This document shows, piece by piece, positions 10,850-64,000 of a DNA stretch of 64,000 nt. Each line of letters opens with the position of its first letter. Position 1 is the stretch's first letter. The translations under genes and the position numbers were made by a program. A model generated the notes under the pieces. The model did no database searches, was not told where the DNA came from, and was given only the letters and a program-made list of their open reading frames with translations. The stretch is taken from the IMG/VR virus record IMGVR_UViG_3300042558_004148, positions 207,416-271,415 of that record; one strand, 5' to 3'. This DNA comes from a virus.

Positions 10850-10882
10850 TTTTTTATCTCCGTCTTTTTTTGTTATATTTGC
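10850..10882 (+). promoter_or_regulatory. phage promoter: upstream element TTTTTTATCTCCGTC plus -7 TATATTTG
   Basis: Matches the recurring element + N9 + TAnnTTTG architecture; about 15 nt before ATG 10897. Confidence 0.55.
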
Positions 10883-10896
10883 TAAAAAATAAAGAT

Positions 10897-11628
10897 ATGT
10901 TTAAATTTTACGAGGTTGGTGGAAAGGTTAGAGACGAGATTTTAGGATTACAGTCTAAAGACGTTGATTATGTTGCAGTTCCGAATGATGCTTTATTAAG
11001 CAAATATAAGGAGGCATATGAAATGTTTCTGTCTCTCGAGAATTATCTTACAACAAATGGATTTGAAATATTCCTATCTACTCCTGATTGCTATACAATT
11101 AGAGCGAAGTTTCCGAAAGACCATGTATATTCAGGCGTAGCGGACTTCGTAATGGCACGAAAAGAAGTTGGTTATGTTACAGGCACAAGAACTCCAATAG
11201 TTAAGCCAGGCACTCTATATGACGATCTAGAGCGAAGAGATTTTACCCTCAATGCTCTTGCTAAGGATGACGATGGAACCATCATAGACTTTTTTAATGG
11301 GATAGACGATCTTAAAGCTGGTGTATTGAAAACACCTCTTGATTGCAAGGTGACATTTGACGACGATCCGCTAAGAATTCTGAGAGCTATTAGATTTTCT
11401 ATAACCAAGGGATTTACCATGACACCACATATGGCCATCGTTATTGATTCCTACAATTATGACGAAAAAATGTCAGTGGTTTCAACCGAGAGAATCAGGG
11501 AGGAATTATATAAATGTTTCAAAGAGAATACATTAGGAACGCTAAGAATTCTTAATGAATTTCCAACTCTAAGAAATTACATTTTTGAAAAAACTGATCT
11601 TTGGTTAAAGCCAACTAACGAAAAATAG
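10897..11628 (+). CDS. tRNA nucleotidyltransferase (CCA-adding enzyme, head domain only)
   Basis: MFKFYEVGGKVRDEILGLQSKDVDYVAV matches the GGxVRD...DxD head motif and RRDFTLNALA matches RRDFTINA. The track start at 10870 is a TTG lying inside the -7 box, so the ATG at 10897 is preferred. Confidence 0.8.
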   Translation: MFKFYEVGGKVRDEILGLQSKDVDYVAVPNDALLSKYKEAYEMFLSLENYLTTNGFEIFLSTPDCYTIRAKFPKDHVYSGVADFVMARKEVGYVTGTRTPIVKPGTLYDDLERRDFTLNALAKDDDGTIIDFFNGIDDLKAGVLKTPLDCKVTFDDDPLRILRAIRFSITKGFTMTPHMAIVIDSYNYDEKMSVVSTERIREELYKCFKENTLGTLRILNEFPTLRNYIFEKTDLWLKPTNEK

Positions 11629-11633
11629 ATAAT

Positions 11634-12371
11634 ATGGCTGATAATATATTCTGTCCGGTGTGCAAGTGTCAATTACACGTAACACATAGTGCAAGGTATG
11701 AATCTAGAGAAGAGCACATCTCAAATCCGAATGGTCCATTTTCTATGAAGGATGGATATCAATGTACCAATGTTAGTTGGTGTGAAGCTTCATATCTAAA
11801 TTATACGTGGATACATGATGGTGATTATTATTCAAATCCACCAGAAGGTATCAGCTACTCTGAGGCTTCCAAGAGATTGAAAGCAGCTAGTGTATCTGGA
11901 ATGGGTTATGCACTTAATTCATGGGAACATTATTACGAATTAGGAAAACTTAATGTCGACAAAAGAAAAAAGACTGTCTATATCGGAAAATACATGATTA
12001 AGATAGAGCCTAAAACTTACGGCTATGATTACCCAATCGAAAAACAATATATGCCAAGAAGATTTGGGTGGAAATTTGAATTTTTCCAGAGGACCAGTGA
12101 TGGATGCTACACAAACATAATACCAACATACAGAATGGTTAGGTATTGTTTGAGACAGTTCAATATGAATTATCGCAACATAAAACAAAACAGCTCTTCC
12201 AGCAATGGATCAATTAAGGAGGCTTTATCGATGATAAATTGTACCAATTGGGGTAGAACCCCTGATGATAGACTTTATGCTAAAATATCATCATTCCTCG
12301 TTAGACTATTCTACCCAAAGAAGGTTAAATACGTAAGGGAAATAGCTGAATCAAATCAAATCAAATATTAA
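11634..12371 (+). CDS. hypothetical Cys-rich protein
   Basis: ORF track; N-terminal CPVCKC...H. Confidence 0.45.
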   Translation: MADNIFCPVCKCQLHVTHSARYESREEHISNPNGPFSMKDGYQCTNVSWCEASYLNYTWIHDGDYYSNPPEGISYSEASKRLKAASVSGMGYALNSWEHYYELGKLNVDKRKKTVYIGKYMIKIEPKTYGYDYPIEKQYMPRRFGWKFEFFQRTSDGCYTNIIPTYRMVRYCLRQFNMNYRNIKQNSSSSNGSIKEALSMINCTNWGRTPDDRLYAKISSFLVRLFYPKKVKYVREIAESNQIKY

Positions 12372-12404
12372 TTTTTTATCTCCGTATAAATTGAATATAT
12401 TTGC
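12372..12404 (+). promoter_or_regulatory. phage promoter: TTTTTTATCTCCGTA - N9 - TATATTTG
   Basis: -7 box at 12396..12403; ATG at 12425. Confidence 0.55.
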
Positions 12405-12424
12405 TAATAATTAAAAATAAAATT

Positions 12425-12844
12425 ATGGCGGTAATATCAATTAGTTATGATGGTGGTGGTAAAGAATATGATGATGACGATAACATCATCTCAGAAACTC
12501 CAATAGTATACCAATTCGTAGAATTATCTAATCAGAAGGAGGGAAGAATCAAATTCAATAGTGGTAACTTCGTCAAGGATTGGTATGACGCAAAGAAAAA
12601 ATATTTGGAAACCGAGGAAGAGGATCCAGTATTTTGTCATTCATCATCAGTTGATCACTTTCTTATGGATGGAGCTAAGTATGACAGCGCTTATCTTCAT
12701 GTAGTGGACGGTAAACCTGTTCTTAAATACTTAGACCGAACCAAAGATGATTGGTACATCGATCCGATTGGGGATGGCTGGGAATTTTTTGTCAATGAAG
12801 GTGAAACTCCAACATTCGATGAACTTAAGGAATCTTGCAAATAA
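12425..12844 (+). CDS. hypothetical protein
   Basis: The track start 12401 is a TTG inside the -7 box, so the ATG at 12425 is preferred. Confidence 0.45.
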   Translation: MAVISISYDGGGKEYDDDDNIISETPIVYQFVELSNQKEGRIKFNSGNFVKDWYDAKKKYLETEEEDPVFCHSSSVDHFLMDGAKYDSAYLHVVDGKPVLKYLDRTKDDWYIDPIGDGWEFFVNEGETPTFDELKESCK

Positions 12845-13479
12845 TTATGAAAACAACTATCAAATATAAGGTCTTATATTACCACGGAGGAATGGGCGAA
12901 ATCAAGGTTGATTACGATTGTCCGGATTTTAGTGATATTGAGGTTGAACCATTAGTTCTAAATGGCAAGCAGGTAACCGATGGACATATTCACACAATAG
13001 AATCCCAGATTGATGAGTGGGTAGGTGAATTTGACAAGAAGGAGTGGATGAATTCCAATGACATCATGACCATATTTGATTGGCAAGTGGTGAGTGCAAA
13101 ATCTAAGGAATCTCCAAACATAAACTTGGTGGTCAAAGAAAAAAAATTAACTCAATCGGAGATGGTTGGTCTATTCGTTCAAATGTCTTCAATGTCAGAC
13201 GATTTAAAGCTGGAATTTATTGCTGTCTATAAGGAACTAAAACCCACAATCAAAAATTTAAAATTCGATAAGCAAATTGATATCACATTCAAGGGATTAA
13301 ATATTGGTATGAAAGCTGCAAGTCAGGCATATAAGTACATCAGTGAGTTTTCAAAGACCATGAGTGGCATGAAAACAGATGACTATAAATCAATATCTTG
13401 GGGTGAAACCATCTTTGATAAGGACAAGATGCTTGATGATGCGAAAGATACAACGATTAAAAAATTAGCTAATGACTAG
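12835..13479 (+). CDS. hypothetical protein
   Basis: ORF track. Confidence 0.45.
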   Translation: MQIIMKTTIKYKVLYYHGGMGEIKVDYDCPDFSDIEVEPLVLNGKQVTDGHIHTIESQIDEWVGEFDKKEWMNSNDIMTIFDWQVVSAKSKESPNINLVVKEKKLTQSEMVGLFVQMSSMSDDLKLEFIAVYKELKPTIKNLKFDKQIDITFKGLNIGMKAASQAYKYISEFSKTMSGMKTDDYKSISWGETIFDKDKMLDDAKDTTIKKLAND

Positions 13480-13822
13480 AAGTCTAAAATTCTATAGAGA
13501 TCCAGATGGATGGTTTGTTGATCTACCTGAATGGGAAGGTTCTAAAGCTGATCTACAGATGGTTGCAGGAGCTGACGTATTTCTGGATATAATGTCACAG
13601 GGAGAAAATGAGGTTTATTTAACATTATCAGATACTCCAATGGATAACTGCAGCCAATTAACATTCAAAGAAATTGGGAGGTTGGAAGGATTTGAATTAG
13701 GAGAGGGAGCATGGTACGTTCTTAATGAGTATATTGGGATAGAATATAATCATGATATGTGGCTATGTGATGTCACTAAATTTGTATTTGGCGAATTTCC
13801 TAAAATAATATACTTTATATGA
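13472..13822 (+). CDS. hypothetical protein
   Basis: ORF track. Confidence 0.45.
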   Translation: MTRSLKFYRDPDGWFVDLPEWEGSKADLQMVAGADVFLDIMSQGENEVYLTLSDTPMDNCSQLTFKEIGRLEGFELGEGAWYVLNEYIGIEYNHDMWLCDVTKFVFGEFPKIIYFI

Positions 13823-14679
13823 ATAAGCTAGAATACGTAACGAGACAATTAGCGAGAGCTGAAAGAAAAAGATACGAACATTATGTTGTTAGTAGGGTAT
13901 TTCATTTGTTGAATGATCTGTCCATTAAATTCATAACCCAGCAGTATGTAAATCGTCCTAGCGGTAGAGCTTTAACCGACATGTACTTTCCTCAATTTGG
14001 TGTTCATATAGAAGTGGACGAGCCACACCACAACAATCAAATTCAGGAAGATAAGCTAAGAGAACTCGATATAGTAAATGCAACTGGTCACGACATCATA
14101 AGGATAACAGTTTCTAATCAAACGATCGAAGATGTTAATGCGCAGATAGATTATGTTGTTAACCTAATAAAATCTAGGAAGTTAAATGATCCAGATTTTA
14201 AAGAATGGGATCCTGAACTGGAGCATAACACCGAAACATATTTAGCAAAAGGGAATATAGATCTTTCGGATAATTGCTCCTTCATGACCATGGTCGATGG
14301 AGCTAATTGTTTTGGTAATAGTTATAAACCTGGTGGAATTTGGAAGGGCGGAGCCAAGCACCAACACGAGGATAAGATCATATGGTTCCCGAAGTTATAT
14401 CCAAATAAAAAATGGATTAATACTATATCGGATGACGAGGAGATGATTACCGAAAAATCGGTTGATTCGGACATCACTGAAAAGTATGTTGATAAAATGA
14501 AATCAAAAGATCAGCCAAATCGTATAGTCTTTGCAAGAGTAAAGAGTCCGCTTGGTGAAGTTATGTACAGGTTTAGAGGAGAATATAAATTTGATACTGG
14601 TGCATCCAATTACGATGACGGTCTAATATTCAGAAGAATAGCAACTTCAGTAAAAACTTATAGAGACAATAGAATATAA
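13819..14679 (+). CDS. hypothetical protein with N-terminal DUF559/endonuclease-like domain
   Basis: LTDMYFPQFGVHIEVDEPHH...DKLRELDIVNATGHDIIRI resembles the DUF559 / Vsr-like nuclease fold (…iEvDG.H……D..Rd..L…G..vlR). Confidence 0.35.
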   Translation: MNKLEYVTRQLARAERKRYEHYVVSRVFHLLNDLSIKFITQQYVNRPSGRALTDMYFPQFGVHIEVDEPHHNNQIQEDKLRELDIVNATGHDIIRITVSNQTIEDVNAQIDYVVNLIKSRKLNDPDFKEWDPELEHNTETYLAKGNIDLSDNCSFMTMVDGANCFGNSYKPGGIWKGGAKHQHEDKIIWFPKLYPNKKWINTISDDEEMITEKSVDSDITEKYVDKMKSKDQPNRIVFARVKSPLGEVMYRFRGEYKFDTGASNYDDGLIFRRIATSVKTYRDNRI

Positions 14680-16154: not shown

Positions 16155-16206
16155 AATTATTATTTACCGTAATGCTGATCTATATTTGTAAAAAATAATA
16201 AGTATT

Positions 16207-16911
16207 ATGAGTTTATTAGATAAATGGATATTATCAAGAGCTAAAAAAATAGAGGCTAAAAAGAAGGCTCTATATGAATCAGAAACCAAGAAGAGAAAAA
16301 CCATTTCAGATTCGATGAAATTGGTAAAGGAAATACTAATCCGCAGAATAAATAAGGAAGCTAAAGAATTAGCTGATACCGAAACCCACATAAGCATCGG
16401 AGACAAAGCCATATTAAATGTATATTCATTGGGCGGCAAGAATGGATCTAATGGATGGGACGGTGGAACTTCATCTCTCATTAAGAACATACCAAAGGAA
16501 GAATTAAACGAACCAGTAATTGTTGAGATCTCCGAAATTTATATAGACACCTCACTTGCTGAGGAAAGAGTTGGTAGATTCGTGGATAACCTAGATAATG
16601 ATTTACTACTATTAATAATGAACGATGAGAAATTAGTATTTGAAGAATACACCTACTGGTTAATCAATAGAACAGGATCGGGTGATTATGGTTTATATAA
16701 AACCGCATATTTCAAATATGATGGTACATTCCAGCCAAAATGGGGTCTTAATATAGATTCATTTCTAAAGGAGGGAACACCAGAATATAAAAAGACTTAT
16801 TCTCTATGGAAAAGAGAATTGGTATTAAATTCAAAGATCGAAAAACTAAAAACTCAGCTTAAAAAGCTTGACGCGGAGAGGGAGAAGATAATGAATGAAT
16901 TGGTAAATTAA
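16207..16911 (+). CDS. hypothetical protein (coiled-coil C-terminus)
   Basis: ORF track. Confidence 0.45.
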   Translation: MSLLDKWILSRAKKIEAKKKALYESETKKRKTISDSMKLVKEILIRRINKEAKELADTETHISIGDKAILNVYSLGGKNGSNGWDGGTSSLIKNIPKEELNEPVIVEISEIYIDTSLAEERVGRFVDNLDNDLLLLIMNDEKLVFEEYTYWLINRTGSGDYGLYKTAYFKYDGTFQPKWGLNIDSFLKEGTPEYKKTYSLWKRELVLNSKIEKLKTQLKKLDAEREKIMNELVN

Positions 16912-18931: not shown

Positions 18932-19016
18932 TATTTTTAACCCGCATCCGCTAAAATAAATTTATCGGAATTGATGGAAAAGCATTAATGATTTGGATAT
19001 ATAAAATAAAAAAACT

Positions 19017-21657: not shown

Positions 21658-21692
21658 TAATTTTTAATCCCGTAAATTATCATTACATTTAC
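21658..21692 (+). promoter_or_regulatory. phage promoter: TTTTTAATCCCGTAA - N9 - TACATTTA
   Basis: Variant of the recurring element upstream of ATG 21707. Confidence 0.45.
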
Positions 21693-21706: not shown

Positions 21707-22483
21707 ATGACGGAGTCAGATTTACTAAATATAGTACTTATCAAATGGCCAGCTTTGGTCGTTAAGGGAGAACCAGTAACCAAGGATCAAGCCAAGGAGA
21801 TACTAATCAGAACAGATTCTCTTTATTTAAGTTGCAATGATCGGGAATGGGAAGAATTTATTCAGACCAAATTTTACGATATAGATTCCAGCATATCAAA
21901 GGGAAATGGTAGGAGACGTTATGATCAAATCGATGAAGAACTTAGAGAAAAACACGGGATTTCTGAGAATGACCATACCAGATTATGGGAGATAAAGGGT
22001 GAATACGAGGATTCAGTTGGATCCATAGAGGGTTTAGAATATCTACGAAACTCCAGAATAGCTTCATCGTGGGTAGGTGGTGCACATGGATGGTGCAACT
22101 GGGACGGGACAATAGGAACTTCAGAATACAATATAGGAAAATATCCTAGTGTTAGCGAAGTCTATGAAGAATGGAAAATAATTGCCAGAGAGTTTCCCTT
22201 TCTAGATCTAAGATGTCAAATAATGAACGAAGAATCCTGTAGTGATGACGAAGACAATACCACAATAAAACCCGTAGTTGAATTTGTAGTTAAAGCAGGC
22301 AAGGTTAAATTAATCGAACCAGTAGAAACTATAACAATACCAATATTCGGCTGGAAGGGTGAAAGAAACGAAAGAGGATGCACGGAGGAGGTATTTTCTG
22401 ATGCTCTTAATTACGCTAAGAATAAAGTTAAAATAGAAAAAATGCTATCATCTGATGATGCATGGGTAGGAGTAAGTAAATAA
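21707..22483 (+). CDS. hypothetical protein
   Basis: ORF track. Confidence 0.45.
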   Translation: MTESDLLNIVLIKWPALVVKGEPVTKDQAKEILIRTDSLYLSCNDREWEEFIQTKFYDIDSSISKGNGRRRYDQIDEELREKHGISENDHTRLWEIKGEYEDSVGSIEGLEYLRNSRIASSWVGGAHGWCNWDGTIGTSEYNIGKYPSVSEVYEEWKIIAREFPFLDLRCQIMNEESCSDDEDNTTIKPVVEFVVKAGKVKLIEPVETITIPIFGWKGERNERGCTEEVFSDALNYAKNKVKIEKMLSSDDAWVGVSK

Positions 22484-25303: not shown

Positions 25304-25337
25304 TTTTTTTAATACCGAATTTTTAGCCTATATTTGC
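25304..25337 (+). promoter_or_regulatory. phage promoter: TTTTTTTAATACCGAA - N9 - TATATTTG
   Basis: -7 box at ~25329..25336. Confidence 0.5.
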
Positions 25338-25374: not shown

Positions 25375-25719
25375 ATGGCAGCAAAATCAAAATCAGTAAA
25401 AGCATTAGATTTATTAAAATCTAACAAATCAGTTTCTGAAAGAGCAGAAAACTACATCGTATCAGTAAAACGTAACATTCAACGTGATGTTATCGATGCA
25501 TTAACTGCTAAGAAAGAATCAATGGAGGATGAGTTATTCGAATTAACTAACTTCAACTTGGAAACCGATGTTAATAAAGGTTACCAACAAATGACTAAAG
25601 AATCGGTTGAACAAAGATTCAAAAAAGTTATCGACATCGAGTATAAGTTGAAATTGACAAGTTTAGAATTAGCTTCTAAGCAAGAGTCTTTTGACAAATA
25701 CTTCGCAGATGCTGAATAA
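25375..25719 (+). CDS. hypothetical protein
   Basis: ORF track. Confidence 0.45.
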   Translation: MAAKSKSVKALDLLKSNKSVSERAENYIVSVKRNIQRDVIDALTAKKESMEDELFELTNFNLETDVNKGYQQMTKESVEQRFKKVIDIEYKLKLTSLELASKQESFDKYFADAE

Positions 25720-26780: not shown

Positions 26781-26807
26781 ATTATTGATAACTTTTGTAA
26801 ATAATTG

Positions 26808-26840
26808 TCCCGAGATTTTTTAATCTCGGGATTTTGTTTT
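26808..26840 (+). terminator. rho-independent terminator followed directly by a -7 box
   Basis: TCCCGAGAttttttaaTCTCGGGA + TTTTGTTTT; TATATTTG at ~26840..26847. Confidence 0.55.
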
Positions 26841-26864
26841 ATATTTGCTCGTAATTAAAAAAAT

Positions 26865-27512
26865 ATGAAAAATAAAAAAGAACACCTAGACATCGAGAAT
26901 CCAATGGAAATGCTTGCTGCATTTACCCAAATGATGGGTTCCGGAGGGGTCCATAGTTTTTTTGGAGGATTACCTTTCGAAGAGAAAGAGAAATATCCAC
27001 ATGATCGATTAGGTGATGGATACGAACTTCGAAAAATCGAAATGAAAGATTTAAAAGGAAATCCAGTTGATAATCGAGATAATTACTCTCATTTATATCA
27101 TAACGATCTTAAGGTTTCTAGTGAAGTATTTCGTAGAGGTGGAACTGGTGGTAAATTTAAAGATGGTTATTGTTCACTGATACATTACGTAGAAGACAAA
27201 AAGAATTCTAAAGGATTTGATTTTGGAACACATGTTATCATTAACAATTTAGGTGAAATTGTTATGGGTAGAAAGGGATTGGATTATCCTAGTCATATTG
27301 GTGGTCATCTTGGTTCGATTAATAATTACATATATGATTTGAGAAGTGGTGCTGCAATTGCTCCAAAGTCTTCAACTACAATTACAGGAACAAACTGTAT
27401 TATTGTTGAACATAGATACGATTGGTATGATAAGGAGGTTAAGTTACCATTAGGAATCTACCGCATAGATTTTCAAACGGCAGAACTTTTATTAATAGAC
27501 AGCATAAAATAA
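26865..27512 (+). CDS. hypothetical protein
   Basis: ORF track. Confidence 0.45.
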   Translation: MKNKKEHLDIENPMEMLAAFTQMMGSGGVHSFFGGLPFEEKEKYPHDRLGDGYELRKIEMKDLKGNPVDNRDNYSHLYHNDLKVSSEVFRRGGTGGKFKDGYCSLIHYVEDKKNSKGFDFGTHVIINNLGEIVMGRKGLDYPSHIGGHLGSINNYIYDLRSGAAIAPKSSTTITGTNCIIVEHRYDWYDKEVKLPLGIYRIDFQTAELLLIDSIK

Positions 27513-28686: not shown

Positions 28687-29196
28687 ATGAGCAAATTAGT
28701 CTATATAGGATCGCCATATTCAAATCAGGATCCAGCTGTTAGAGAGGAAAACTTTAATATAGTTTCCAGACTAGCTGCAAGAGAATGCTCAAATGGAAAA
28801 GTTGCTTTCTCGCCAATAACATATGGGCATACTCTTATTGAGTTTAAACATATGCCAACCAATTGGGAATTCTGGAAATCATTTTGTCTTGCATTTCTAG
28901 AACATGCTGATGAGCTACTGGTTTATAAAATGCCAGGATGGGAGAATTCAAGGGGTCTTGCCGAAGAGATACTATTTGCAACCGAGAGGAATATAAAAAT
29001 CACTTGGTTGGAATATGATCAATACGAAAACGTTCCCGTAGATGAAAAGAGAGAATTCATATCAGCGAATGGAGAATGGGAGAATTCATGGTCCGATGAT
29101 AACTGGGTACGTAAGGACTCAGATAACAAAGAAGCAAATACTGGAATAGATACCGACCATCTATATAGATCACTTAAATTAAAAAGTGAGTTGTAA
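28687..29196 (+). CDS. DUF1937-like protein (nucleoside 2-deoxyribosyltransferase-like fold)
   Basis: VYIGSPYS...SPI.YGH...PGWENSRGLAEEILFA resembles the DUF1937 / N-deoxyribosyltransferase-like pattern. Confidence 0.4.
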   Translation: MSKLVYIGSPYSNQDPAVREENFNIVSRLAARECSNGKVAFSPITYGHTLIEFKHMPTNWEFWKSFCLAFLEHADELLVYKMPGWENSRGLAEEILFATERNIKITWLEYDQYENVPVDEKREFISANGEWENSWSDDNWVRKDSDNKEANTGIDTDHLYRSLKLKSEL

Positions 29197-29230
29197 TTTT
29201 TTTATCCCGTATAAATTTAATATCTTTACA
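29196..29230 (+). promoter_or_regulatory. phage promoter: TTTTTTTATCCCGTA - N9 - TATCTTTA
   Basis: Canonical copy of the recurring upstream element; ATG at 29248. Confidence 0.5.
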
Positions 29231-29247: not shown

Positions 29248-30765
29248 ATGTTTAAACCCACAAGTTTATTTTACACTGATGGCTATAAAATTGGCCACAA
29301 GAAAATGTTAGCTCCCGGAACAACCCGTTTGTACGGTACTTGGATTCCACGAAGCACAAAGCATGCTCCTGAGGGAGTAGATAAAATAGTATCATTCGGT
29401 CAACAATTGGTAGTGAAATGGTTACATGATGAATTCGAAGAGAATTTTTTCAAACAACCAATTAGCGTTGCTACTAAATTTTCCGATGATATGTCAAAGT
29501 ATTTAGGACTTCCGTTCGATGGTTCACACTTCTCGGAATTACATCATCTGGGTTACTTGCCTATTAGAATTAAAGCTTTACCTGAAGGTATCGAAACAAA
29601 CCCTAACATCCCTCACATGACATTTGTGAATACTGTGGATGGATTCGGATGGTTAACATTATATTTGGAGACCATCATATCTTCATTGGCATGGAAACCA
29701 GCAACCTCTGCTACACTTGCACTAAGATACCGAAGAAATTTGGTTGAATGGGTTACGAAAACTGATCCGGCTAACGCTTGGTTAATTCCTTTCCTATGTC
29801 ACGACTTCTCTGCTAGAGGTTTATCTCCATGGGATATGTTATCTAGTGGTTTAGGACACGCTACGTCATTCAGAGGATCTGACACTATTGTTTGTATTCC
29901 TGCAGCACGATACTTCTATAACGAGCCAGAAAACGATGTCTGCATCAATTCTGTTAACGCTTCTGAACACTCAGTATCAACAACAAAGATATTTACTGTA
30001 GGAGAACAACAAATGATCTCCGATTGGTTAACTGAATTCCCTACAGGAATCCTATCAATTGTATCTGACACTTTTGATTTATGGAAACTTATCACGGAAT
30101 ATCTTCCTGCAAATAAAGAGCAAATCATGTCACGTGATGGAAAACTTGTTATCCGTCCTGACTCTGGTGATCCAGTAGATATTATCTGTGGTTCAGTGGA
30201 TGTGTTTAAGCACAATGATCCTAATTCACCACAAAGAAAAGGTGTAGTTGAATTACTTTGGGATATCTTCGGTGGAACAATCAACGAACAAGGATACAAA
30301 GTTCTTGATCCACATATTGGTGCGATCTACGGGGATTCAATCACAGTTGGTCGTCAGATTCAAATCTATGAAAGATTAGAAGAAAAAGGTTTTGCTTCAA
30401 CAAACATCGTGTTGGGAATCGGATCATTCACTTATCAAATGAATACTAGAGATACTTTGGGATTCGCTGCTAAAGGAGCTTGGTTCGAAGTAGAAGAACC
30501 TATATTTGGTGAATTTTTAGACCAAAATCTAAATACTGAAAAGGTTGCTTATGACATCTATAAAGATCCAATCACTGACGACGGAACTAAAAAATCATTG
30601 AAGGGATTAGTTCAAGTTGTAATGGAAGGCGATGAATATCATGTTAATACTCAATGTACTTGGGAACAGGAGGAGCAGGGCTTTTTACAAACAATCTATG
30701 AAGAGGGAAGATTCGTTAACGAAACAACTCTTGAGGAAGTACGTAACAAATTAAATTCTTTATAA
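29248..30765 (+). CDS. nadV: nicotinamide phosphoribosyltransferase family protein (Nampt/NadV-like; candidate nicotinamide ADP-ribose transferase)
   Basis: LFYTDGYKIGHKKMLAPGTTRLYGTWIPRS matches the Nampt N-terminus (tDsYK.tH..yP..t..yS....R). NASEHSVSTT matches AAEHST. Length 505 aa. Confidence 0.75.
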   Translation: MFKPTSLFYTDGYKIGHKKMLAPGTTRLYGTWIPRSTKHAPEGVDKIVSFGQQLVVKWLHDEFEENFFKQPISVATKFSDDMSKYLGLPFDGSHFSELHHLGYLPIRIKALPEGIETNPNIPHMTFVNTVDGFGWLTLYLETIISSLAWKPATSATLALRYRRNLVEWVTKTDPANAWLIPFLCHDFSARGLSPWDMLSSGLGHATSFRGSDTIVCIPAARYFYNEPENDVCINSVNASEHSVSTTKIFTVGEQQMISDWLTEFPTGILSIVSDTFDLWKLITEYLPANKEQIMSRDGKLVIRPDSGDPVDIICGSVDVFKHNDPNSPQRKGVVELLWDIFGGTINEQGYKVLDPHIGAIYGDSITVGRQIQIYERLEEKGFASTNIVLGIGSFTYQMNTRDTLGFAAKGAWFEVEEPIFGEFLDQNLNTEKVAYDIYKDPITDDGTKKSLKGLVQVVMEGDEYHVNTQCTWEQEEQGFLQTIYEEGRFVNETTLEEVRNKLNSL

Positions 30766-34898: not shown

Positions 34899-35804
34899 GT
34901 GATGAAAGCAATAAAAGAAATCGTACAGTATATAGAAACTGATAATCCAACCGGGACATTAAGTATACTGGAGCCAAATTACTCATCCGTAAGTGAGGAA
35001 GGCATATTACCAATACAATTAAACACCAAGAATTTCCATTTGGAAGACCATAGGATCAAATCAGTAATGAACAAAGAAACTATTGCTGATATCATGGCTA
35101 TGCACGGTATAGATTCAAGAGCGATGACAAAAAATACAATCGATAATGAAGCTGAAGTTAACCTAGAGAAAAAAATCTATGGGATGCTAGAAGAATCAGG
35201 AAGAAATAACTACCGAAGTGAATGGAGCAAAACTAGATGGTTCATTTATAATTGGTTGGGTTATTATCCTAAGGTTAGAATATTAGCAACAGAGTCTTCA
35301 CCTGGGAGTCTTTTAAAGCATATACATATAGCAGGAAGTAAAATAGCAAACAAGTCAAGAGGTGGAGGTGCTGATTTTATTATAGTTAGCCAATCAATAG
35401 GATCACTGCTATCGGATCTTAGCCAATTCTCTTTCAATATGGAAGAAGCAACAAATTTCATAGAGAACGGATCATCAATCAGACAAATAGGTGTTCTTGC
35501 TGGAAGATATAGGGTACTTATAAATCCTTTACTTAGTAATGATATAGATCAAACCAGTATTGTAATCGGAGCATCCACAAAAGAAGGACAGGAAGGTGTC
35601 TATCATATTGCTATGCTTCCTACCTATGATGAAATCGAGAACGAAAACTACGCAACTCTAAGAACTGAAATCATCACGGTGAGGTCACAAAGAATGGCAA
35701 CAATAAAAACCAACAACTCTGATTTCAAATACATAACAATTCCGCTTACTAAATCTAGACACAATATAATAACTCACCTATATAAAAAAATATTTAAAAA
35801 ATAA
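34899..35804 (+). CDS. hypothetical protein
   Basis: ORF track. Confidence 0.45.
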   Translation: MMKAIKEIVQYIETDNPTGTLSILEPNYSSVSEEGILPIQLNTKNFHLEDHRIKSVMNKETIADIMAMHGIDSRAMTKNTIDNEAEVNLEKKIYGMLEESGRNNYRSEWSKTRWFIYNWLGYYPKVRILATESSPGSLLKHIHIAGSKIANKSRGGGADFIIVSQSIGSLLSDLSQFSFNMEEATNFIENGSSIRQIGVLAGRYRVLINPLLSNDIDQTSIVIGASTKEGQEGVYHIAMLPTYDEIENENYATLRTEIITVRSQRMATIKTNNSDFKYITIPLTKSRHNIITHLYKKIFKK

Positions 35805-39166: not shown

Positions 39167-39201
39167 TATTTTTTAATACCGAGAAATAAATCTATATTTG
39201 C
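39167..39201 (+). promoter_or_regulatory. phage promoter: TTTTTTAATACCGAG - N9 - TATATTTG
   Basis: -7 box at ~39193..39200. Confidence 0.5.
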
Positions 39202-39234: not shown

Positions 39235-39792
39235 ATGGAAACATCAAAAATTATTAAGTATTCAATTATTGCACTGGTATCGATATTCCTATTAGGGACA
39301 ATCGGAAGTGTTATCTCGACTTCCAATGATGAGGTTGAATTAAAAAATCGCTTCAAACAAAAAATGGATGAACGTACCGCATTTTATGATAAGATGTGGA
39401 AAACAATCTCTCAGAAATCGCAAATTGCAATTAAAAATGATAGTTCATTCGTTAGAAATGTAAATATCATTATGCAAGGAAGAAAAGATGCACCGCAGGT
39501 ATTTATGAAATGGATCCAGGAATCAAATCCAAATTCAAATTATGAAACTGTATCCTCCTTATATGCTGATTTAAGTAGAACCGTAGAGGGACAGAGAGAT
39601 GGTTTCTTCATGCAGGAAAAAATGATCCAAGACATCGTTCTATCACATGATAATATAATGACTAGATTTCCTTCAGGTTTTATCCTATCAACCTTCATGG
39701 GTAGAACAAGATTAGTATACAAACCTATTACATCGGACCGTACAGATGGCGTTATCAAGTCAGGTAAGGATAACGATGTAAGCGTATTTTAA
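39235..39792 (+). CDS. membrane-anchored protein (weak LemA-like)
   Basis: N-terminal TM helix; weak LemA-like MW..ISQ.SQ segment. Confidence 0.35.
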   Translation: METSKIIKYSIIALVSIFLLGTIGSVISTSNDEVELKNRFKQKMDERTAFYDKMWKTISQKSQIAIKNDSSFVRNVNIIMQGRKDAPQVFMKWIQESNPNSNYETVSSLYADLSRTVEGQRDGFFMQEKMIQDIVLSHDNIMTRFPSGFILSTFMGRTRLVYKPITSDRTDGVIKSGKDNDVSVF

Positions 39793-41989: not shown

Positions 41990-42023
41990 TATTAGCTTAT
42001 ATTTAATTTAATCTATATATCAT

Positions 42024-42055
42024 TTTTTATACCCGTAACATTTTAATACATTTAC
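42024..42055 (+). promoter_or_regulatory. phage promoter: TTTTTTATACCCGTAA - N9 - TACATTTA
   Basis: Recurring element upstream of ATG 42068. Confidence 0.45.
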
Positions 42056-42067: not shown

Positions 42068-42817
42068 ATGAATAAGATATTAGAATCTTTAAGACCTTTC
42101 TGCTCTGTTAAAAATGCAGGACCAGCATACCTAAATGGAGCTGAGCCAACACCAAGAGTTAGATTTATCATTGATCTTTTAGATGAGATGAAAATACCTT
42201 ATGAAATTGACAGCTTCCTGTTCAATGATATAAATCTATATAATGTGATATTGAGAGGAACCAGCAAAAGAATGGTGGTAGCACATCATGATATAGTTAA
42301 TCCAGATTCTGAGAATGCGAATGACAATTCAGCATCAGTCCTTAATGCGATATATTTAAAATCGATACTTCCTGAGATCAATGTAGTTCTGACAGATGCC
42401 GAGGAGGTTGGTCTTAGAGGTGCATCACATTTGGCAGAACAAATATTGGCTGGAGAATTTGGAGAAATTGAATGGGTATTAAATTTGGAATTAAGTGGAG
42501 CTGGCGGTAAGAATTTTATGATAGGATCACATAAGGGTAAACTTACAGACAGGATTGTCGAGATGTTTAATGCACCAGTAGTTCAAACTCCTCCTAGCGA
42601 TTCTTATGCATTTGAAAGATATGGCATAGATACCAATGTAATAAACCCATTATCGCTATTGAATGAAGGAGAATCTAGTATATTGAGTGAGTCAGGATAT
42701 TTAGATAACTCATCATGGTGGTTGTGTCATACCATGGAGGACACTGCGGATAAGTTATCAACAAAAGATATGTATGATTTTGTCAACGAGGTTCTTGTAC
42801 CCATAGTTTCGGAATAA
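42068..42817 (+). CDS. M28/M20-type zinc exopeptidase-like protein
   Basis: VVAHHDIV....DNSASVLNAIYL and VVLTDAEEVGLRGASH match the metal-ligand layout of M28/M42 peptidases (H.D ... D ... EE ... H). Confidence 0.5.
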   Translation: MNKILESLRPFCSVKNAGPAYLNGAEPTPRVRFIIDLLDEMKIPYEIDSFLFNDINLYNVILRGTSKRMVVAHHDIVNPDSENANDNSASVLNAIYLKSILPEINVVLTDAEEVGLRGASHLAEQILAGEFGEIEWVLNLELSGAGGKNFMIGSHKGKLTDRIVEMFNAPVVQTPPSDSYAFERYGIDTNVINPLSLLNEGESSILSESGYLDNSSWWLCHTMEDTADKLSTKDMYDFVNEVLVPIVSE

Positions 42818-43653: not shown

Positions 43654-43878
43654 CTCTATATATTTATTTCCGAAATTTTTTTATATTCCCGCATATAATA
43701 CTTATATTTACAAATTATTAACTAGTTTAAATTAATATGTCGGTAATTTCAAACAATAAGTATGACATGTTTAATTGGGTTGAGAAAATAATTGGCTCTT
43801 ATAAAACTTTAGATCATACTAATGGTTCTGATAGATTATAAGAGAGGTTTAAGATTAAATCAATGAAAAAAAGAAAAT

Positions 43879-44598
43879 ATGAACTTTGATATAAATAATT
43901 TCAACAAACTAGGTTATGTAATAGTAAAAGATTTTTTATCTGAAGATGAACTAAAAACTTTATTAGAAACATCACAAAAGCATTATGAGTATTCTCTTAA
44001 CTTAAGGGAACATGAAGGCAACTACAGACTAAACAGTCCAACTAATTTAAACAAAATAGAGGGTGCCTGCGATTACGAACCTGAGTTTTTGAAGATAGCA
44101 AAAAATAAAATTTTAGTAGATACTGCCAAGAAATTAATTAATACCGAGGAAACATTGGATGTTTATATATCTAAATTTTTCCCTATGAAACCTAAAGTGG
44201 GAATATCAACATTTTTCCACCAAGACAATTTCTATTTTGGAGGCGATCCCAATACCATAATTAGTTGTGCTCTATATTTTCAAGATACGAATAAAGAAAA
44301 TGGTTGCTTAAGAATCATTCCGGGGTCCCATAATATAGGAATAATAAGACATGATATATCTTCTCATATAGGAGGTATAAGGTGGATAGATGAAAAAATA
44401 CTAAATCCTAATGCGATATTAGATTTAGAACTGGATGCTCCATATGCTGTGTTTTTTAATATTAATATGATACATGGGTGTTATCCAAACACATCAAACG
44501 GGACTCGATTTAGCTTAGCATGGGAATACATAGAATCTAGTAATAGTAAAGTAGCACACTCACCAGATAATTGGTGTGATAGAAACTTAGTAGGATAA
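43879..44598 (+). CDS. phytanoyl-CoA dioxygenase (PhyH) family 2OG-Fe(II) oxygenase
   Basis: FHQDNFYF...CALYFQDTNKENGCLRIIPGSH matches the PhyH H.D ... eNG.l.viPGSH pattern. Confidence 0.6.
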   Translation: MNFDINNFNKLGYVIVKDFLSEDELKTLLETSQKHYEYSLNLREHEGNYRLNSPTNLNKIEGACDYEPEFLKIAKNKILVDTAKKLINTEETLDVYISKFFPMKPKVGISTFFHQDNFYFGGDPNTIISCALYFQDTNKENGCLRIIPGSHNIGIIRHDISSHIGGIRWIDEKILNPNAILDLELDAPYAVFFNINMIHGCYPNTSNGTRFSLAWEYIESSNSKVAHSPDNWCDRNLVG

Positions 44599-46495: not shown

Positions 46496-46517
46496 AGCCC
46501 AAAATAAATCAAAAAAT

Positions 46518-46553
46518 AAAGCCTGGAATTTTTTTATTCCGGGCTTTATTTTT
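46518..46553 (+). terminator. rho-independent terminator overlapping the next promoter
   Basis: AAAGCCTGGAAtttttttaTTCCGGGCTTT + ATTTTTAT; TATATTTG at 46553..46560. Confidence 0.6.
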
Positions 46554-46585
46554 ATATTTGCATTATAAAATTAATAAGATCCGAT

Positions 46586-46798
46586 ATGGAGAAAGATACA
46601 AATAAAAATCCATTAATATTTCCACTGATAGGTGCTTCGATGTCATTTATAATGTACATGTTTGCATTTCATGCAGAAAGAAACGAAAACAAGGAGCTGA
46701 AAATCCAAATTGAATCTTATAAACATCAGATAGATTCACTGAAAATTATAAATAACATTAATCCAAAATCAAATATAAATGATAACAATAAACAATAA
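46586..46798 (+). CDS. small membrane protein
   Basis: ORF track; TM helix. Confidence 0.4.
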   Translation: MEKDTNKNPLIFPLIGASMSFIMYMFAFHAERNENKELKIQIESYKHQIDSLKIINNINPKSNINDNNKQ

Positions 46799-49183: not shown

Positions 49184-49217
49184 ATTTTTTTATCTCGTAT
49201 AAATTGATTAAATTTGT
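49184..49217 (+). promoter_or_regulatory. phage promoter driving tRNA-like gene A: TTTTTTTATCTCGTA - N9 - TAAATTTG
   Basis: The -7 box lies about 15 nt upstream of the predicted 5' end of the tRNA-like RNA at 49232. Confidence 0.5.
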
Positions 49218-49231: not shown

Positions 49232-49311
49232 GGTCCTGGAGCTTAATCTGACGTGGAAGTCAGGTCTGCCTCTAAAACAGATAGCATCGGGTTCGAATCC
49301 TGCTAGGATCA
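49232..49311 (+). tRNA. tRNA-like gene A (80 nt, non-canonical D region), anticodon loop C-U-CUA-A-A (amber-suppressor-like CUA)
   Basis: Acceptor GGTCCTG pairs with TAGGATC (two G.U pairs). T arm CGGG-TTCGAAT-CCTG. Anticodon stem TCTG/CAGA closes the loop CTCTAAA. Discriminator A. No encoded CCA. Confidence 0.45.
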
Positions 49312-51734: not shown

Positions 51735-51864
51735 AGTCAGGTGGCGGAATTGGTAGACGCTAGACAGGTAACCAACTACAACTGTAATAAACCCGCTGAT
51801 CACGGTTAATAAGAACAGCTCTGTCGCAGAGGTTGGTATACAGGTTCGAATCCTGTCCTGGCTA
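51735..51864 (+). tRNA. tRNA-like gene C (about 130 nt): first 28 nt identical to gene B; insertion of about 57 nt
   Basis: 5' AGTCAGGTGGCGGAATTGGTAGACGCTA is identical to B. 3' ACAGG-TTCGAAT-CCTGT + CCTGGCT + A. The acceptor pairs with one G.U pair. Confidence 0.45.
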
Positions 51865-52009: not shown

Positions 52010-52096
52010 AGTCAGGTGGTGTAATAGGCAACACCCTTCATTATCAGGCCCCGTAAGGCTGGAAGGACGACGCAGGTTCGAATCCTGTCCTGACCA
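52010..52096 (+). tRNA. tRNA-like gene D (87 nt) with an extended (about 32-nt) anticodon-arm-like hairpin
   Basis: Acceptor AGTCAGG/CCTGACC (A1.C72). D arm GTGT-AATAGGCA-ACAC. Long hairpin CCTTC...CAG(G)CC-CCGTAA-GGCTG...GAAGG. T arm GCAGG-TTCGAAT-CCTGT. Confidence 0.45.
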
Positions 52097-52217: not shown

Positions 52218-52283
52218 AGTCAGATGAAAGTAGGCTAAGACGAATTAAGTTTCGCGTTGCAGGTTCGATTCCTGCTCTGACTA
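52218..52283 (+). tRNA. tRNA-like gene E (66 nt, degenerate; possibly a pseudo-tRNA)
   Basis: Acceptor AGTCAGA/TCTGACT and T arm GCAGG-TTCGATT-CCTGC. The internal region is too short for both a D arm and an anticodon arm. Confidence 0.35.
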
Positions 52284-55799: not shown

Positions 55800-55843
55800 A
55801 TGATTTATAATTTATGTATATATTCAAAAAAATTGATTAAATA

Positions 55844-55876
55844 TTTTTTTATCCCGTAATTATGCATTACTTTTAC
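55844..55876 (+). promoter_or_regulatory. phage promoter: TTTTTTTATCCCGTAA - N9 - TACTTTTA
   Basis: Recurring element upstream of ATG 55902. Confidence 0.45.
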
Positions 55877-55901: not shown

Positions 55902-56360
55902 ATGACTTACGTTAAGAAAGCAAAAAATGCACAAGCTCCTTCAAACAACAAAGTTTGGACTTCTAAGGACGACAAAACTTTAATCGGAATGGCAAAAGAT
56001 GGTGCTTCCACTGCAGAGATTGCCAAGGAGTTGGGAAGAACTAAAGCTGCTATCTGGGGCAGAAAATATGGCCTAGGTGTTACAGGAAGATTAACATCAT
56101 CTAAAGGACAAGGAATCATGGTACCGGTTTCAATTTCTACGAAAGTTAGAAAGAATGCAGGTAAAAATTCTAAAGTAACAACATCAGCTAAGGGAAGTGT
56201 TGCACGTTCAACTAAACCTGAAGTTATGGTAAATGTTGAGACAGGCTCGGTTAAAGTTTCAAAACCTAGCAAAGGTGCTAAGACAGAAACTATCGGTTTA
56301 GCTATGATCAAAAAGTTTGCTAAAGCAAACGGTGCGAAAGTAACGATCACTTTTGAGTAA
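55902..56360 (+). CDS. Lys-rich HTH DNA-binding protein (histone-like tail)
   Basis: WTSKDDKTLIGMAKDGASTAEIAKELGRTKAAIWGRK is helix-turn-helix-like. The C-terminus is K/T/S-rich. Confidence 0.4.
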   Translation: MTYVKKAKNAQAPSNNKVWTSKDDKTLIGMAKDGASTAEIAKELGRTKAAIWGRKYGLGVTGRLTSSKGQGIMVPVSISTKVRKNAGKNSKVTTSAKGSVARSTKPEVMVNVETGSVKVSKPSKGAKTETIGLAMIKKFAKANGAKVTITFE

Positions 56361-56418: not shown

Positions 56419-56444
56419 GAGGTAATTTTAATGATATATACTGA

Positions 56445-60464: not shown

Positions 60465-60499
60465 TATTTTTTTATACCGGGGAATTCTCAGATATTTGC
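60465..60499 (+). promoter_or_regulatory. phage promoter: TTTTTTTATACCGGG - N9 - GATATTTG
   Basis: Recurring element upstream of ATG 60543. Confidence 0.45.
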
Positions 60500-60542: not shown

Positions 60543-61577
60543 ATGGGAAGTTGGTCAGTAAGCTGTGGAATTAGCAATATCGCAATCACATCAGGAAATG
60601 AATGTTGCATCATTCCGCTAAATGAATCAGGTCAAGACTATGGTGGGTATTTACCTACTACATTACCAATTTTTGGTAAGTATGATGACTATGGCGGTAT
60701 GGAAGACATAGTTGAGGATGAGAACACTAAACTCATAGAGGACTTTTTCGGTATCACAATTGCTGAATTTATTGAATTTTTGGTTGATGGAGAATATACT
60801 TTCGATAGACGTGAGGTTAAACCAATCAGACAAAAGCTAGAAGACAATGGAAAACTAGAGCACATCGAGAAATGGCGTTTTATGTGGGTGGATAAACAGG
60901 TTTATGATGTTATGGCACAATCATATGACGAACATGAGAAGGGACATCATGACTTTGGTACACCAGAAATGTTATCATTGTTAGGCTTCACACTTATTGA
61001 TGGTGAAATCACAAACTACGATCCAAAACGTTTCAATAAGAAATATAAAAAAGGTGATTTGATTGTATATTCTGATGATAGAACAATGTTATCAGAAGCT
61101 AATCGATACATTTTTTATACCGATAAAGGTTGCGAGAGTAGTCTTACCACATACACAGAATTACCAGAAGAATTAGCGTACATTAAGGATAAAACCAGTA
61201 GTGAAATTTGGCGATTAATGTCCAAAGTAAAGCAGAAGGAAAAGCTGGGTTATATCTTTGGGAATCGTTATGATCTGGATATCGACGAGGGACTATTAGC
61301 TAACTTAAAAGATGCAATAGAAAAAACAGGTGATGTACTTGGTATTAAAATCAACAAAAAATCAATCTATAAACAATACTTCGACAATATGGAGGAATTT
61401 GGTGATAAAATCGTTGGATTACTTAATGTTCGTGGTAATATGCATCCTATGTCCAGCAGATTTTTTCCACACGTATTGTATCTAACCCCACAATGTGGTG
61501 AACATGAACAACACCAAATATTGCTTGAAGCATTTGCAAAGATTAATAAATCATACATCGAAGAATATGAAGACTAA
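60543..61577 (+). CDS. hypothetical protein
   Basis: ORF track. Confidence 0.45.
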   Translation: MGSWSVSCGISNIAITSGNECCIIPLNESGQDYGGYLPTTLPIFGKYDDYGGMEDIVEDENTKLIEDFFGITIAEFIEFLVDGEYTFDRREVKPIRQKLEDNGKLEHIEKWRFMWVDKQVYDVMAQSYDEHEKGHHDFGTPEMLSLLGFTLIDGEITNYDPKRFNKKYKKGDLIVYSDDRTMLSEANRYIFYTDKGCESSLTTYTELPEELAYIKDKTSSEIWRLMSKVKQKEKLGYIFGNRYDLDIDEGLLANLKDAIEKTGDVLGIKINKKSIYKQYFDNMEEFGDKIVGLLNVRGNMHPMSSRFFPHVLYLTPQCGEHEQHQILLEAFAKINKSYIEEYED

Positions 61578-62407: not shown

Positions 62408-62731
62408 ATGACTCAAGAAGAATTAAAGCAAAAGTTTGCACAGAAAATGTTGGATGAGAATCTAGATTTCTTACCATTGGAAGAATCCCTACAATTAGTG
62501 GATTGCGATATTAACCTAGACACCCGATTTTCATGGGTTATAAATGTGGAGGAACTTGGTACCGAGGATAGAGATTATGACGAAATGACCACGGAGGAAC
62601 TTCTGGGAAATTACAGAGAAGTTTTTGGTGATTCTGATTGTGGCTTAAAAGTTGGTAATAGTGATCAAGAATTTTCTGAATTCACTATGGAATTAGCTCC
62701 GGCACCAACTTATATCGATTTAATCAAATAA
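62408..62731 (+). CDS. hypothetical acidic protein
   Basis: ORF track. Confidence 0.4.
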   Translation: MTQEELKQKFAQKMLDENLDFLPLEESLQLVDCDINLDTRFSWVINVEELGTEDRDYDEMTTEELLGNYREVFGDSDCGLKVGNSDQEFSEFTMELAPAPTYIDLIK

Positions 62732-62734
62732 GTT

Positions 62735-62932
62735 ATGTCGAATCGGGTAAGATCTGGATGGAAAGACTTTTTAAATTGGCTGATAGGCTTACCCAAATGT
62801 AAAAAAGGTGGTCGATGCAATATGGATTCTGAAATTGAATATACCATGAAATCTGGAAAATTCTTTCGAAAAAGTAACAGATGGGCATGTTCTAAATGTC
62901 ATACAGAGACAACCAAATATGGAGAAATTTAA
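62735..62932 (+). CDS. zinc-ribbon protein
   Basis: CKKGGRC...CSKCH. Confidence 0.4.
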   Translation: MSNRVRSGWKDFLNWLIGLPKCKKGGRCNMDSEIEYTMKSGKFFRKSNRWACSKCHTETTKYGEI

Positions 62933-62975
62933 AACCTCGCTTGGGTAGGTAAAAGCTAATTAATAATATGAAAAA
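62931..62975 (+). repeat. intergenic direct repeat copy 1 (AAACCTCGCTTGGGTAGGTAAAAGCTAA...AATATGAAAA)
   Basis: About 36/40 identical to copy 2 at 63195..63240; each spans a stop codon and the next start. Confidence 0.55.
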
Positions 62976-63207
62976 TTTAATCATCACCGTGTCTGGTGAA
63001 ACTAACTCAGGAAAGTCTCGTATAATGCTATTACTAAAGGATTTTCTAAGAGAAAATGATTTTATAGTCGAATTTGACGGTGGAATCGATTATGAAAACG
63101 AGAATCAATTCAACGAACACGTGAGCAAAAATTTCGATCATGTAATTGAGCATGTGAAAAATACAAAAACTATAACGTTGAAAGAAGAACAACTAAACCT
63201 CGCTTGA
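62968..63207 (+). CDS. small P-loop-like protein
   Basis: SGETNSGKS (GxxxxGKS). Confidence 0.35.
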   Translation: MKNLIITVSGETNSGKSRIMLLLKDFLRENDFIVEFDGGIDYENENQFNEHVSKNFDHVIEHVKNTKTITLKEEQLNLA

Positions 63208-63240
63208 ATAGGTAAAAGCTAACACGTAATATGAAAATAT
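63195..63240 (+). repeat. intergenic direct repeat copy 2
   Basis: AAACCTCGCTTGAATAGGTAAAAGCTAACACGTAATATGAAAAT. Confidence 0.55.
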
Positions 63241-63821
63241 CAGTAAATCAAGATGACTCATTCCAATTAGAGGAAGTTTATCTGCCGATAGTTCTAGTAT
63301 CCGACGATAAGGAGGAAATGTCTATCGTAATGAGAGACAGCGGATTTGAGTTCAAGTATCAAGGGGATTGGTACATTGCAAAGAATGGAGTAGTTGAGCT
63401 TCTAAGAAAACAGGATCTGTCCGGTGCATTAAAAGAAGCACCAGATACGGCAACAGCACAGTACGAAACACCAAATGCCGTTGATTTTATGGATCTAGCT
63501 CCACAAACAACATTACAAACAACAAGAGGTGATGTAGTACCAGATGTGGATACGACGGGGAATGGAAAGCTGGTTGAAGCCATATTGAGAGAATATATTT
63601 CTGAAAATCTATTTAATGGTTCAGAAGGATTAAAGGAATTACTTCAGAAAGAAATGGATAATCGTTTAGAATTCACTGTGATAGTATTTGACGTGGAGAG
63701 TGGTGATGGATTCATTCACGGATCTGCTGGTTATCACTCGGATGGAAAGATGAGAATAGCTAACTTTACGGTGACGTCATACTTAGGTGATGTTATTTCT
63801 TCCGAAAATAAAGCGGATTAG
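63231..63821 (+). CDS. hypothetical protein
   Basis: ORF track. Confidence 0.45.
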   Translation: MKISVNQDDSFQLEEVYLPIVLVSDDKEEMSIVMRDSGFEFKYQGDWYIAKNGVVELLRKQDLSGALKEAPDTATAQYETPNAVDFMDLAPQTTLQTTRGDVVPDVDTTGNGKLVEAILREYISENLFNGSEGLKELLQKEMDNRLEFTVIVFDVESGDGFIHGSAGYHSDGKMRIANFTVTSYLGDVISSENKAD

Positions 63822-63857
63822 TCAGCCTAATAGGCTACTCAAAAATATAATATGGAT

Positions 63858-63893
63858 AGGAATGTCTTAATTAAGGCATTCCTATTTTTTTTA
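63858..63893 (+). terminator. rho-independent terminator followed by a phage promoter
   Basis: AGGAATGtcttaattaaggCATTCCT + ATTTTTTTT, then TTACCCGCAA ... TACATTTA (63908..63915). Confidence 0.55.
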
Positions 63894-64000
63894 CCCGCAA
63901 TGTGGTATTACATTTACACCATTAATAGATTCTTAATTTTAGGAAGAACATGAAGAAAAATCTATACCTATTACCAACTGATAAACCAAGCAGATTAATA

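Follow-up and report, generated by a model that had tools for sequence, protein, structure and literature searches.

The DNA analysed here, referred to as the window, is a 64 kb stretch of a viral genome (positions 207,416–271,415 of IMG/VR record IMGVR_UViG_3300042558_004148), and the feature of interest is a 33 bp promoter-like signal, designated type A, that recurs between its genes. The window has a G+C content of 34.6%, is ∼91% coding and carries 94 of its 114 open reading frames (ORFs) on the plus strand. Its genes include those for an RNA ligase, Thg1, a CCA-adding-type enzyme, an RNA-repair HAD domain, NAMPT, PRPP synthetase, NADAR and SmpB, together with homing endonucleases and a gp23-like paralogue, a content that is typical of the accessory region of a large myovirus; genes for the tail sheath, tail fibre and terminase are present on related contigs. 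The window represents only ∼64 kb of a genome that is likely to exceed 250 kb. A megablast search with 12 kb of it found no close DNA relative among cultured-phage records. Its 630-residue SPFH-like protein is 64% identical to a protein of LR756502.1 (a 642 kb 'uncultured phage') and 62–84% identical to proteins of 58 IMG/VR contigs of up to 508 kb. To our knowledge, huge phages of Bacteroidota are known from metagenomes alone, and we know of no description of their transcription scheduling. Phage genomes larger than 634 kb in the study that reported LR756502.1 have predicted hosts in the Bacteroidetes (PMC7162821).

Type A has the form A-TTTTTT(T)-WW-N-(C/T)CG-N11-TAnnTTT(G/A) and is found at 17 sites in the window, all on the plus strand and all intergenic, in addition to one degenerate copy. 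An earlier note on this DNA had described a recurrent T-run followed by CCGTA ahead of a Bacteroidota-type −7 box. All 13 positions that it listed carry the motif, the site that it placed at galE/smpB is that at 7994–8026, and the set now extends to three further sites (starting at 16156, 26815 and 43678) and the degenerate copy (6867–6897). With the TA of the −7 box taken as position 0, the consensus reads A (−25), T6 (−24 to −19), WW (−18, −17), T (−16), C/A (−15), C/T (−14), C (−13), G (−12), T or any base (−11), A (−10), nine unspecified nucleotides, TAnnTTT(G/A) and then C; it can also be written ATTTTTTTATCCCGTA, with ATCCCGTA as the string of the upstream element. All 17 sites have C(−13) and G(−12). 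The register is equally fixed: at every site the −7 box lies 9 nt past CCGTA, that is, 11 nt past CCG. The 9 nt spacing given in the earlier note is therefore exact, but its distance of 15–25 nt from the box to the start codon is too narrow, the observed range being 13–44 nt. The box itself is TAnnTTT(G/A) at 16 sites (11 with G and six with A) and GATATTTG at the other.

The promoter consensus of Bacteroidota consists of TTTG at −33 and TAnnTTTG at −7 (PMC7366714). No G occurs at positions −22 to −19 in any of the 17 sites, and T6 fills the position of the host −33 TTTG. The host TTTG is thus missing, as had been noted, but CCGTA is not itself the substitute: the T-run at −24 holds the −33 position and CCG lies ∼8 bp further downstream, in the spacer. 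Because the T-run starts at the same coordinate as the TTTG of canonical lineages, we read the −33 position as kept, its G as lost and CCG as an added spacer element. The suggestion of a classical UP-like element has to be abandoned, because type A sits downstream of where UP elements are located.

The pattern TTTTTT-N5-CG-N11-TA-NN-TTT, with at most one mismatch, has 18 matches in the window, of which 16 are true sites; the expected number is 0.67 ± 0.79, and a count of 18 is reached in none of 100 dinucleotide shuffles. A position weight matrix (PWM) for the upstream part alone, with the −7 box left out, was scanned over both strands (128 kb). Its 14 top matches are all on the plus strand, intergenic and 9 nt before a −7 box, and 17 of the 18 matches scoring at least 13.8 bits are of the promoter type. 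Together, the shuffles and the upstream-only matrix rule out an artefact of chance or composition. With none of the 17 sites in coding sequence in a window that is 91% coding, the motif is not equally common inside genes, a possibility that the earlier note had raised against itself. The lone strong match of the upstream element without a −7 box (4972–4987, minus strand, CTTTTTTATTCCCGTA, 16.6 bits) falls within the first codons of the minus-strand gene 4546–5010.

The motif is conserved in related phages, the loci of which are labelled with L-numbers below (L049, L080, L081, L146 etc.; L001 is LR756502.1 323817–365586). The exact consensus has 21 matches in IMG/VR, with 13 on eight contigs of 88–434 kb and five on one 348 kb contig. 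Type A stays with orthologous genes in relatives of 117–434 kb at 44–80% protein identity. Among 81 orthologue pairs between the window and its relatives, in which gene order is shuffled, the motif is present in both members in ten, in the relative only in two, in the window only in five and in neither in 64 (Fisher p = 9e-8). On inspection, two pairs of the window-only group proved to be a conserved hairpin variant. Across 56 non-redundant sites of the clade the spacing is invariant, and A(−25) and C(+8) are kept though neither was used in selecting the sites. The genes behind type A in the window and its relatives form one class, comprising tRNAs, dCMP deaminase, NAD salvage (NAMPT), RNA repair and SmpB, and in the relatives the motif is often directly upstream of tRNA genes.

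The range of type A is narrow. In 948 kb around SPFH homologues, relaxed matches are confined to one subset (subclade) of loci, with 29 of 32 in gene orientation, and ∼500 kb of more distant relatives contains zero relaxed matches. Other lineages carry canonical TTTG-N19/20-TAnnTTTG promoters, among other places immediately before the orthologous SPFH gene, and the two promoter types are almost mutually exclusive within one locus. A signal common to all huge Bacteroidota phages is ruled out, as LR756502 differs and many relatives have the canonical TTTG. At L001, from this 642 kb phage, (T)TATCCT abuts TATATTTG at no fewer than five gene starts. NAMPT homologues were also used as comparators (31 loci); the motif is kept in the closest only, as this gene is exchanged widely. 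Among the bacterial and archaeal genomes of GTDB (596 Gb) the exact consensus has 27 scattered matches, one per locus, in unrelated taxa and with no second relaxed site nearby. About 12% of the window sites match the exact consensus, so that many matches would be expected from a host in which the element was used with similar stringency. A host promoter type is thus ruled out at comparable stringency, which upholds the proposal of the earlier note that the element is promoter-associated and phage-specific. Searches of the literature on this motif and on the promoters of huge phages of Bacteroidota returned nothing relevant. As judged from these sequence comparisons, type A is a real, conserved promoter architecture that belongs to one clade only.

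The individual sites differ in strength and setting. Two match the consensus and share the top score of 23.7 bits: 29196–29228, before the NAMPT gene (29248–30765) and kept in the closest NAMPT relative, L049, and 55843–55875, before a gene (55902–56360) for a protein with a GcrA-like DNA-binding domain (DBD), at all examined homologues of which it is kept. The site nearest the start of the window, ATTTTTTCTTCCCGAA-N9-TATATTTG at 2258–2290 (19.6 bits), precedes ORF 2307–2669 with 16 nt between the −7 box and the ATG, and that at 7994–8026 (18.9 bits) precedes smpB (8065–8508). Those at 12371–12403 (before ORF 12425–12844; orthologous promoter kept in L080 and L049), 39168–39200 (before ORF 39235–39792; kept in L049 and L081) and 42022–42054 (before the M28 peptidase gene 42068–42817; kept in L146) recur in related loci, and the site at 21659–21691, before ORF 21707–22483, is kept at orthologues of 44–46% protein identity on contigs of 270 and 319 kb. 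A further site at 25304–25336 precedes ORF 25375–25719. The site at 43678–43710 (TTTTATATTCCCG-N11-TATATTTA) lies before a 34-residue ORF (ATG at 43737) and the PhyH gene 43879–44598, and the site with the variant box GATATTTG (60466–60498; 20.6 bits) lies before ORF 60543–61577. A weak site at 16156–16188 (TTATTATTTACCG-N11-TATATTTG; 13.8 bits, leave-one-out 7.7) has TTATTA in place of the T-run and precedes ORF 16207–16911.

Most sites are thus upstream of start codons, as had been described; that at 49184–49216 is not, since it lies 22 nt before a tRNA-like RNA (49239–49311) and not before a protein gene. This is one of four tRNA-like RNAs found with Rfam, the others being at 51735–51864, 52010–52096 and 52218–52283; two of the four are above and two just under the gathering score, and one is 130 nt in length (possible intron). 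ARAGORN reported no tRNA across the whole window. The region around these RNAs (48.3–53 kb) contains few ORFs.

Strong hairpins accompany four of the 17 sites. Three of these sites lie inside a terminator: 10849–10881 (−17.8 kcal/mol), before the CCA/polyA-polymerase-head gene (ATG at 10897); 26815–26847 (−18.8 kcal/mol), before ORF 26865–27512; and 46528–46560 (−22.2 kcal/mol), before ORF 46586–46798 and kept in L146. In these embedded terminators (10828–10881, 26805–26847 and 46514–46560) the loop is formed by the T-run, CCG is in the 3′ arm and the 11 nt spacer serves as the U-tract. At the fourth site (63884–63916; −17.8 kcal/mol) the hairpin is adjacent, with the T-run as the U-tract of the upstream terminator; the gene behind it starts at 63950 and runs past the window end. 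L080 (about 13800–13870) and L081 (about 12070–12135) also have the fusion ahead of the CCA-enzyme gene, with compensatory changes in the stem and (C/T)CG-N11-TAATCTTG retained. As a hairpin of note is missing at 13 of the 17 sites, the type-A element is read as part of a promoter and not as an RNA structure; an explanation of the T-run as a terminator U-tract, or of CCG as a hairpin arm, holds at four sites only and cannot account for the motif. In addition, a 58 nt direct repeat of the promoter region (88% identity) is found on both sides of the galE-like gene (6945–7967), at 6861–6917 and 7989–8046. The upstream copy contains the degenerate site, TTTTTTATACTG-N11-CATATTTG at 6867–6897 on the plus strand, with CTG for TCG and CATATTTG for TATATTTG, and the arrangement looks like the insertion of a PeSL-type cassette.

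The minus-strand operons of the window are without type A and carry a second motif, (G/A)ATATATA(G/A/C), 3–30 nt before the start codon. Copies precede minus-strand genes at 2252, 5022, 38082, 42021, 43664, 55824, 57353, 58526 and 60413, and plus-strand copies are present at 18996, 38089 and 56433; among the related loci the motif is found in L146–L152 and at L002:930–968. Its total count is not above that in shuffled sequence; 13 of the 18 copies are intergenic, and the motif is strongly conserved in relatives. On type-A contigs it precedes the tail sheath gene and a virion structural protein gene, and at the sheath-gene locus the dCMP deaminase gene lies behind a type-A promoter. T4 late promoters consist of a bare TATAAATA, and T4 late genes are mostly opposite in direction to the early genes. 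The ATATATA motif resembles this T4 late promoter and is located at structural and minus-strand genes; type A is therefore best read, as far as such placement can indicate, as a pre-late (early or middle) class. The earlier note had presented type A as a handle on one transcriptional class, and the second, T4-late-like motif at minus-strand and structural genes accords with this. The ATATATA motif often lies as close as 3 nt to the ATG; the mRNAs would then be leaderless, unless the motif has some other role. Many of the genes behind it start with MKH. In three places a −7-box promoter is directly followed by the ATATATA motif before one and the same gene: L151 (minus strand, ∼9744–9700), L146 (minus strand, ∼15564–15500) and the window (56423–56441). 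The promoters of the L151 and L146 arrangements are type A and the window copy (TAATTTTA) is without the type-A upstream element. These arrangements suggest dual control of some genes by the two classes.

Two other genes of the window deserve mention. ORF 13819–14679 encodes PvuRts1I-like N-terminal and SRA domains, a combination that belongs to a family of endonucleases dependent on modified cytosine (5-hydroxymethylcytosine). The 301-residue ORF 34899–35804 has a partial match to the T4 Gp23 major capsid protein (Pfam E = 3e-10) and ∼23% identity to cyanophage gp23; located among metabolic genes, it is probably a paralogue and not the capsid gene.

The interpretation that we prefer, although we hold it tentatively, is that type-A sites are pre-late promoters of one clade of huge tailed Bacteroidota phages and that their upstream element is read by a phage-supplied activator or sigma cofactor. 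The host primary-sigma holoenzyme would bind the TAnnTTT(G/A) box, the retention of which implies region 2 of sigma-A. The fixed-register bipartite element formed by A-T6/7 and (C/T)CG, at roughly −37 to −22, would replace the canonical −33 TTTG, and a monomeric phage-supplied protein, made early or delivered with the DNA, would contact CCG and the T-run in place of sigma region 4. The reader would be phage-supplied because, beyond the scattered single matches described above, the element is absent from cellular genomes, and because sister phages use a normal −33 box at the same genes. The upstream element is asymmetric and 16 bp long and has a geometry that matches T4 middle promoters, which we count in favour of a cofactor; MotA/AsiA of T4 acts in this manner at middle promoters, as does GcrA at sites in the spacer. 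On balance, we slightly favour a phage-specified cofactor or activator over the unaided host RNA polymerase.

The sole candidate seen for this reader, which we regard as a lead only, is the product of the plus-strand gene 55902–56360. It is a protein of 152 residues with a predicted GcrA-type three-helix DBD, a basic disordered linker and a short invariant C-terminal motif. Its matches are weak: PDB entry 7ye1_G with E = 0.0026 and NCBIfam NF050816 with E = 2e-6 (28 bits, cut-off 280), and the top Foldseek match is 5yiu (target TM-score 0.86, E = 0.24). The family comprises only 17 clusters among 5.8 billion proteins, and homologues in IMG/VR were found by an alignment-based search, a single-sequence search having given none. 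Every contig checked that carries the gene is type A, with the motif upstream of the gene. Pfam scans of all ORFs of the window found no sigma or RNA polymerase gene and no MotA or AsiA homologue; spurious Serglycin matches to the GS linkers of concatenated queries were disregarded.

Several observations weigh against this interpretation. The C-terminus of the candidate, one helix and a tail, has no match to the sigma-interacting domain of GcrA, and even the similarity of its DBD is weak (E = 0.0026 against the PDB; 28 bits against a cut-off of 280). Its co-occurrence with the motif may reflect shared ancestry alone, and the gene that encodes it has a type-A promoter of its own. In type-A DNA (the window and 12 loci, ∼310 kb) there are almost no canonical host-type promoters, so that nothing obvious would express the activator first, unless type A has basal activity or the factor is injected. 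The −33 box is also weak or undetectable in some Bacteroidota (PMC7366714), so that its loss does not by itself point to displacement of sigma region 4; the comparison with the host uses the Bacteroidota-wide consensus. The scarcity of canonical promoters gives weight to a second view, that type-A sites are very strong early promoters for unmodified host RNA polymerase, with the T-run as a −33 variant or minor-groove contact and CCG as a spacer contact. We consider this a serious possibility, somewhat less probable than a phage-supplied reader. The phage-specific consensus would then merely optimize binding of the host polymerase, as in T4 early promoters and PeSL cassettes. Type A is nearly the only −7-box class in the sampled DNA of the clade, so that immediate-early transcription seems to need it, and the T-run starts at exactly the canonical TTTG position. 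The setting is also PeSL-like, with an accessory region, four of 17 sites fused to stem-loop terminators and repeats around an inserted galE-like gene (PMC2839356, PMC4122927), and T4 early promoters too hold consensus positions beyond those of the host (PMC2988021). However, PeSL promoters, like the early promoters of T4, conform to the host consensus, whereas type A is without the −33 G in all 17 sites and adds an invariant CG that cells do not use recurrently; moreover, TTTG is retained by sister phages at orthologous genes.

A phage-encoded factor of the sigma-70 family, with a host-like region 2 and a region 4 specific for the T-run and CCG, is an unlikely reader. Some huge phages do encode sigma-70 (PMC7162821), and a tblastn search of 2.1 Mb of loci with regions 2–4 of E. 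coli sigma-70 gave one match, a sigma-70-like ORF at L108:2687–3079 with region 2 43% identical to that of E. coli over 54 residues. The L108 lineage, however, is canonical (TTTG-N20-TACCTTTG) and not type A, and no sigma factor was found in the window or, by tblastn of limited sensitivity, in type-A-lineage loci. Furthermore, a 16 bp element is long for region 4 alone, and a first promoter class would still be required. We give still less credence to another main role for the element, as the operator of a shut-off repressor, part of a terminator or a hotspot for gene-shuffling recombination. The overlap of four sites with terminators and the promoter repeats around an inserted gene fit such a role, but 13 of the 17 sites are without a hairpin, and the single-base register to the −7 box combined with the loss of the −33 G is what would be expected of a positive recognition element. 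Conservation at 45% protein identity also makes homogenization driven by recombination implausible.

A phage-supplied reader could amount to a previously undescribed takeover of the Bacteroidota primary sigma, in which a small phage protein, possibly the GcrA-DBD-like one, acts on A-T6..CCG and replaces the contact of region 4 with the −33 box; we consider this stronger claim doubtful. If it were true, the host polymerase would be redirected to promoters spaced at about one per 4 kb in a genome of 250–430 kb, in what would be the first sigma appropriation outside the T4-like phages of Proteobacteria. It would also provide a new route of host-polymerase capture and an orthogonal promoter/activator pair, a compact expression part for the engineering of Bacteroidota. 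Type A and the late-like ATATATAG could be used to split hundreds of huge-phage genes of unknown function into putative temporal classes by sequence only, and the pair should aid in delimiting the clade and recognizing its contigs. With the −33 box replaced throughout one clade and retained by sister phages at the same genes, these promoters constitute a natural experiment on recognition by the unusual sigma-A of Bacteroidota.

Type A shares features with four known systems. It has the −7 box, the short leaders and the upstream T position of canonical Bacteroidota sigma-A promoters, and its placement ahead of start codons and tRNA-like genes is consistent with transcription that starts a few nucleotides past the box. 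It lacks the G of TTTG everywhere and shows a CG that never varies, 11 nt ahead of the −7 box, as well as an A at the edge of the T-run, none of which is known from hosts. Like the PeSLs of RB49/phi1, T4 and KVP40, it forms repeated, conserved intergenic promoter or promoter/terminator cassettes among accessory genes, in which the stem-loop may lie between the boxes. As with PeSLs, the cassettes travel with genes and form direct repeats around an inserted gene (here galE), and genes keep their promoters while synteny is shuffled. PeSLs differ in having the host sigma-70 consensus, from which type A deviates at −33, and a stem-loop is present at only about a quarter of type-A sites. The sigma-70 cofactor GcrA of Caulobacter holds sigma domain 2 and at the same time binds, as a monomer, to the −35/−10 spacer (PMC9976885). 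Among the products of the window is a protein in which a GcrA-type DBD is followed by a long linker and a short conserved C-terminus, and the invariant asymmetric CCG in the spacer would fit a monomer; on the other hand, the motif contains no GANTC/m6A site, the protein shows no similarity to the sigma-interacting domain and the element lies 4–6 bp upstream of the GcrA site (−22 to −18). In T4 middle promoters, a host −10 element is combined with a MotA box 12 ± 1 bp upstream in place of the −35 element (PMC2988021). The MotA box, (a/t)(a/t)(a/t)TGCTTtA, is unrelated in sequence to T6..CCG and shorter than the 16 bp element described here, which is set in the −7/−33 architecture of Bacteroidota sigma-A with no host-type early class found alongside. 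The likeness to the MotA/AsiA system is instead one of design: a host downstream element, stringently kept, is joined to an asymmetric phage box, the short distance between them is fixed (12 ± 1 bp in T4, 9–11 bp here), and the myovirus, in which the combination appears to mark a single temporal class, additionally possesses a late-type promoter that is minimal and A/T-rich.

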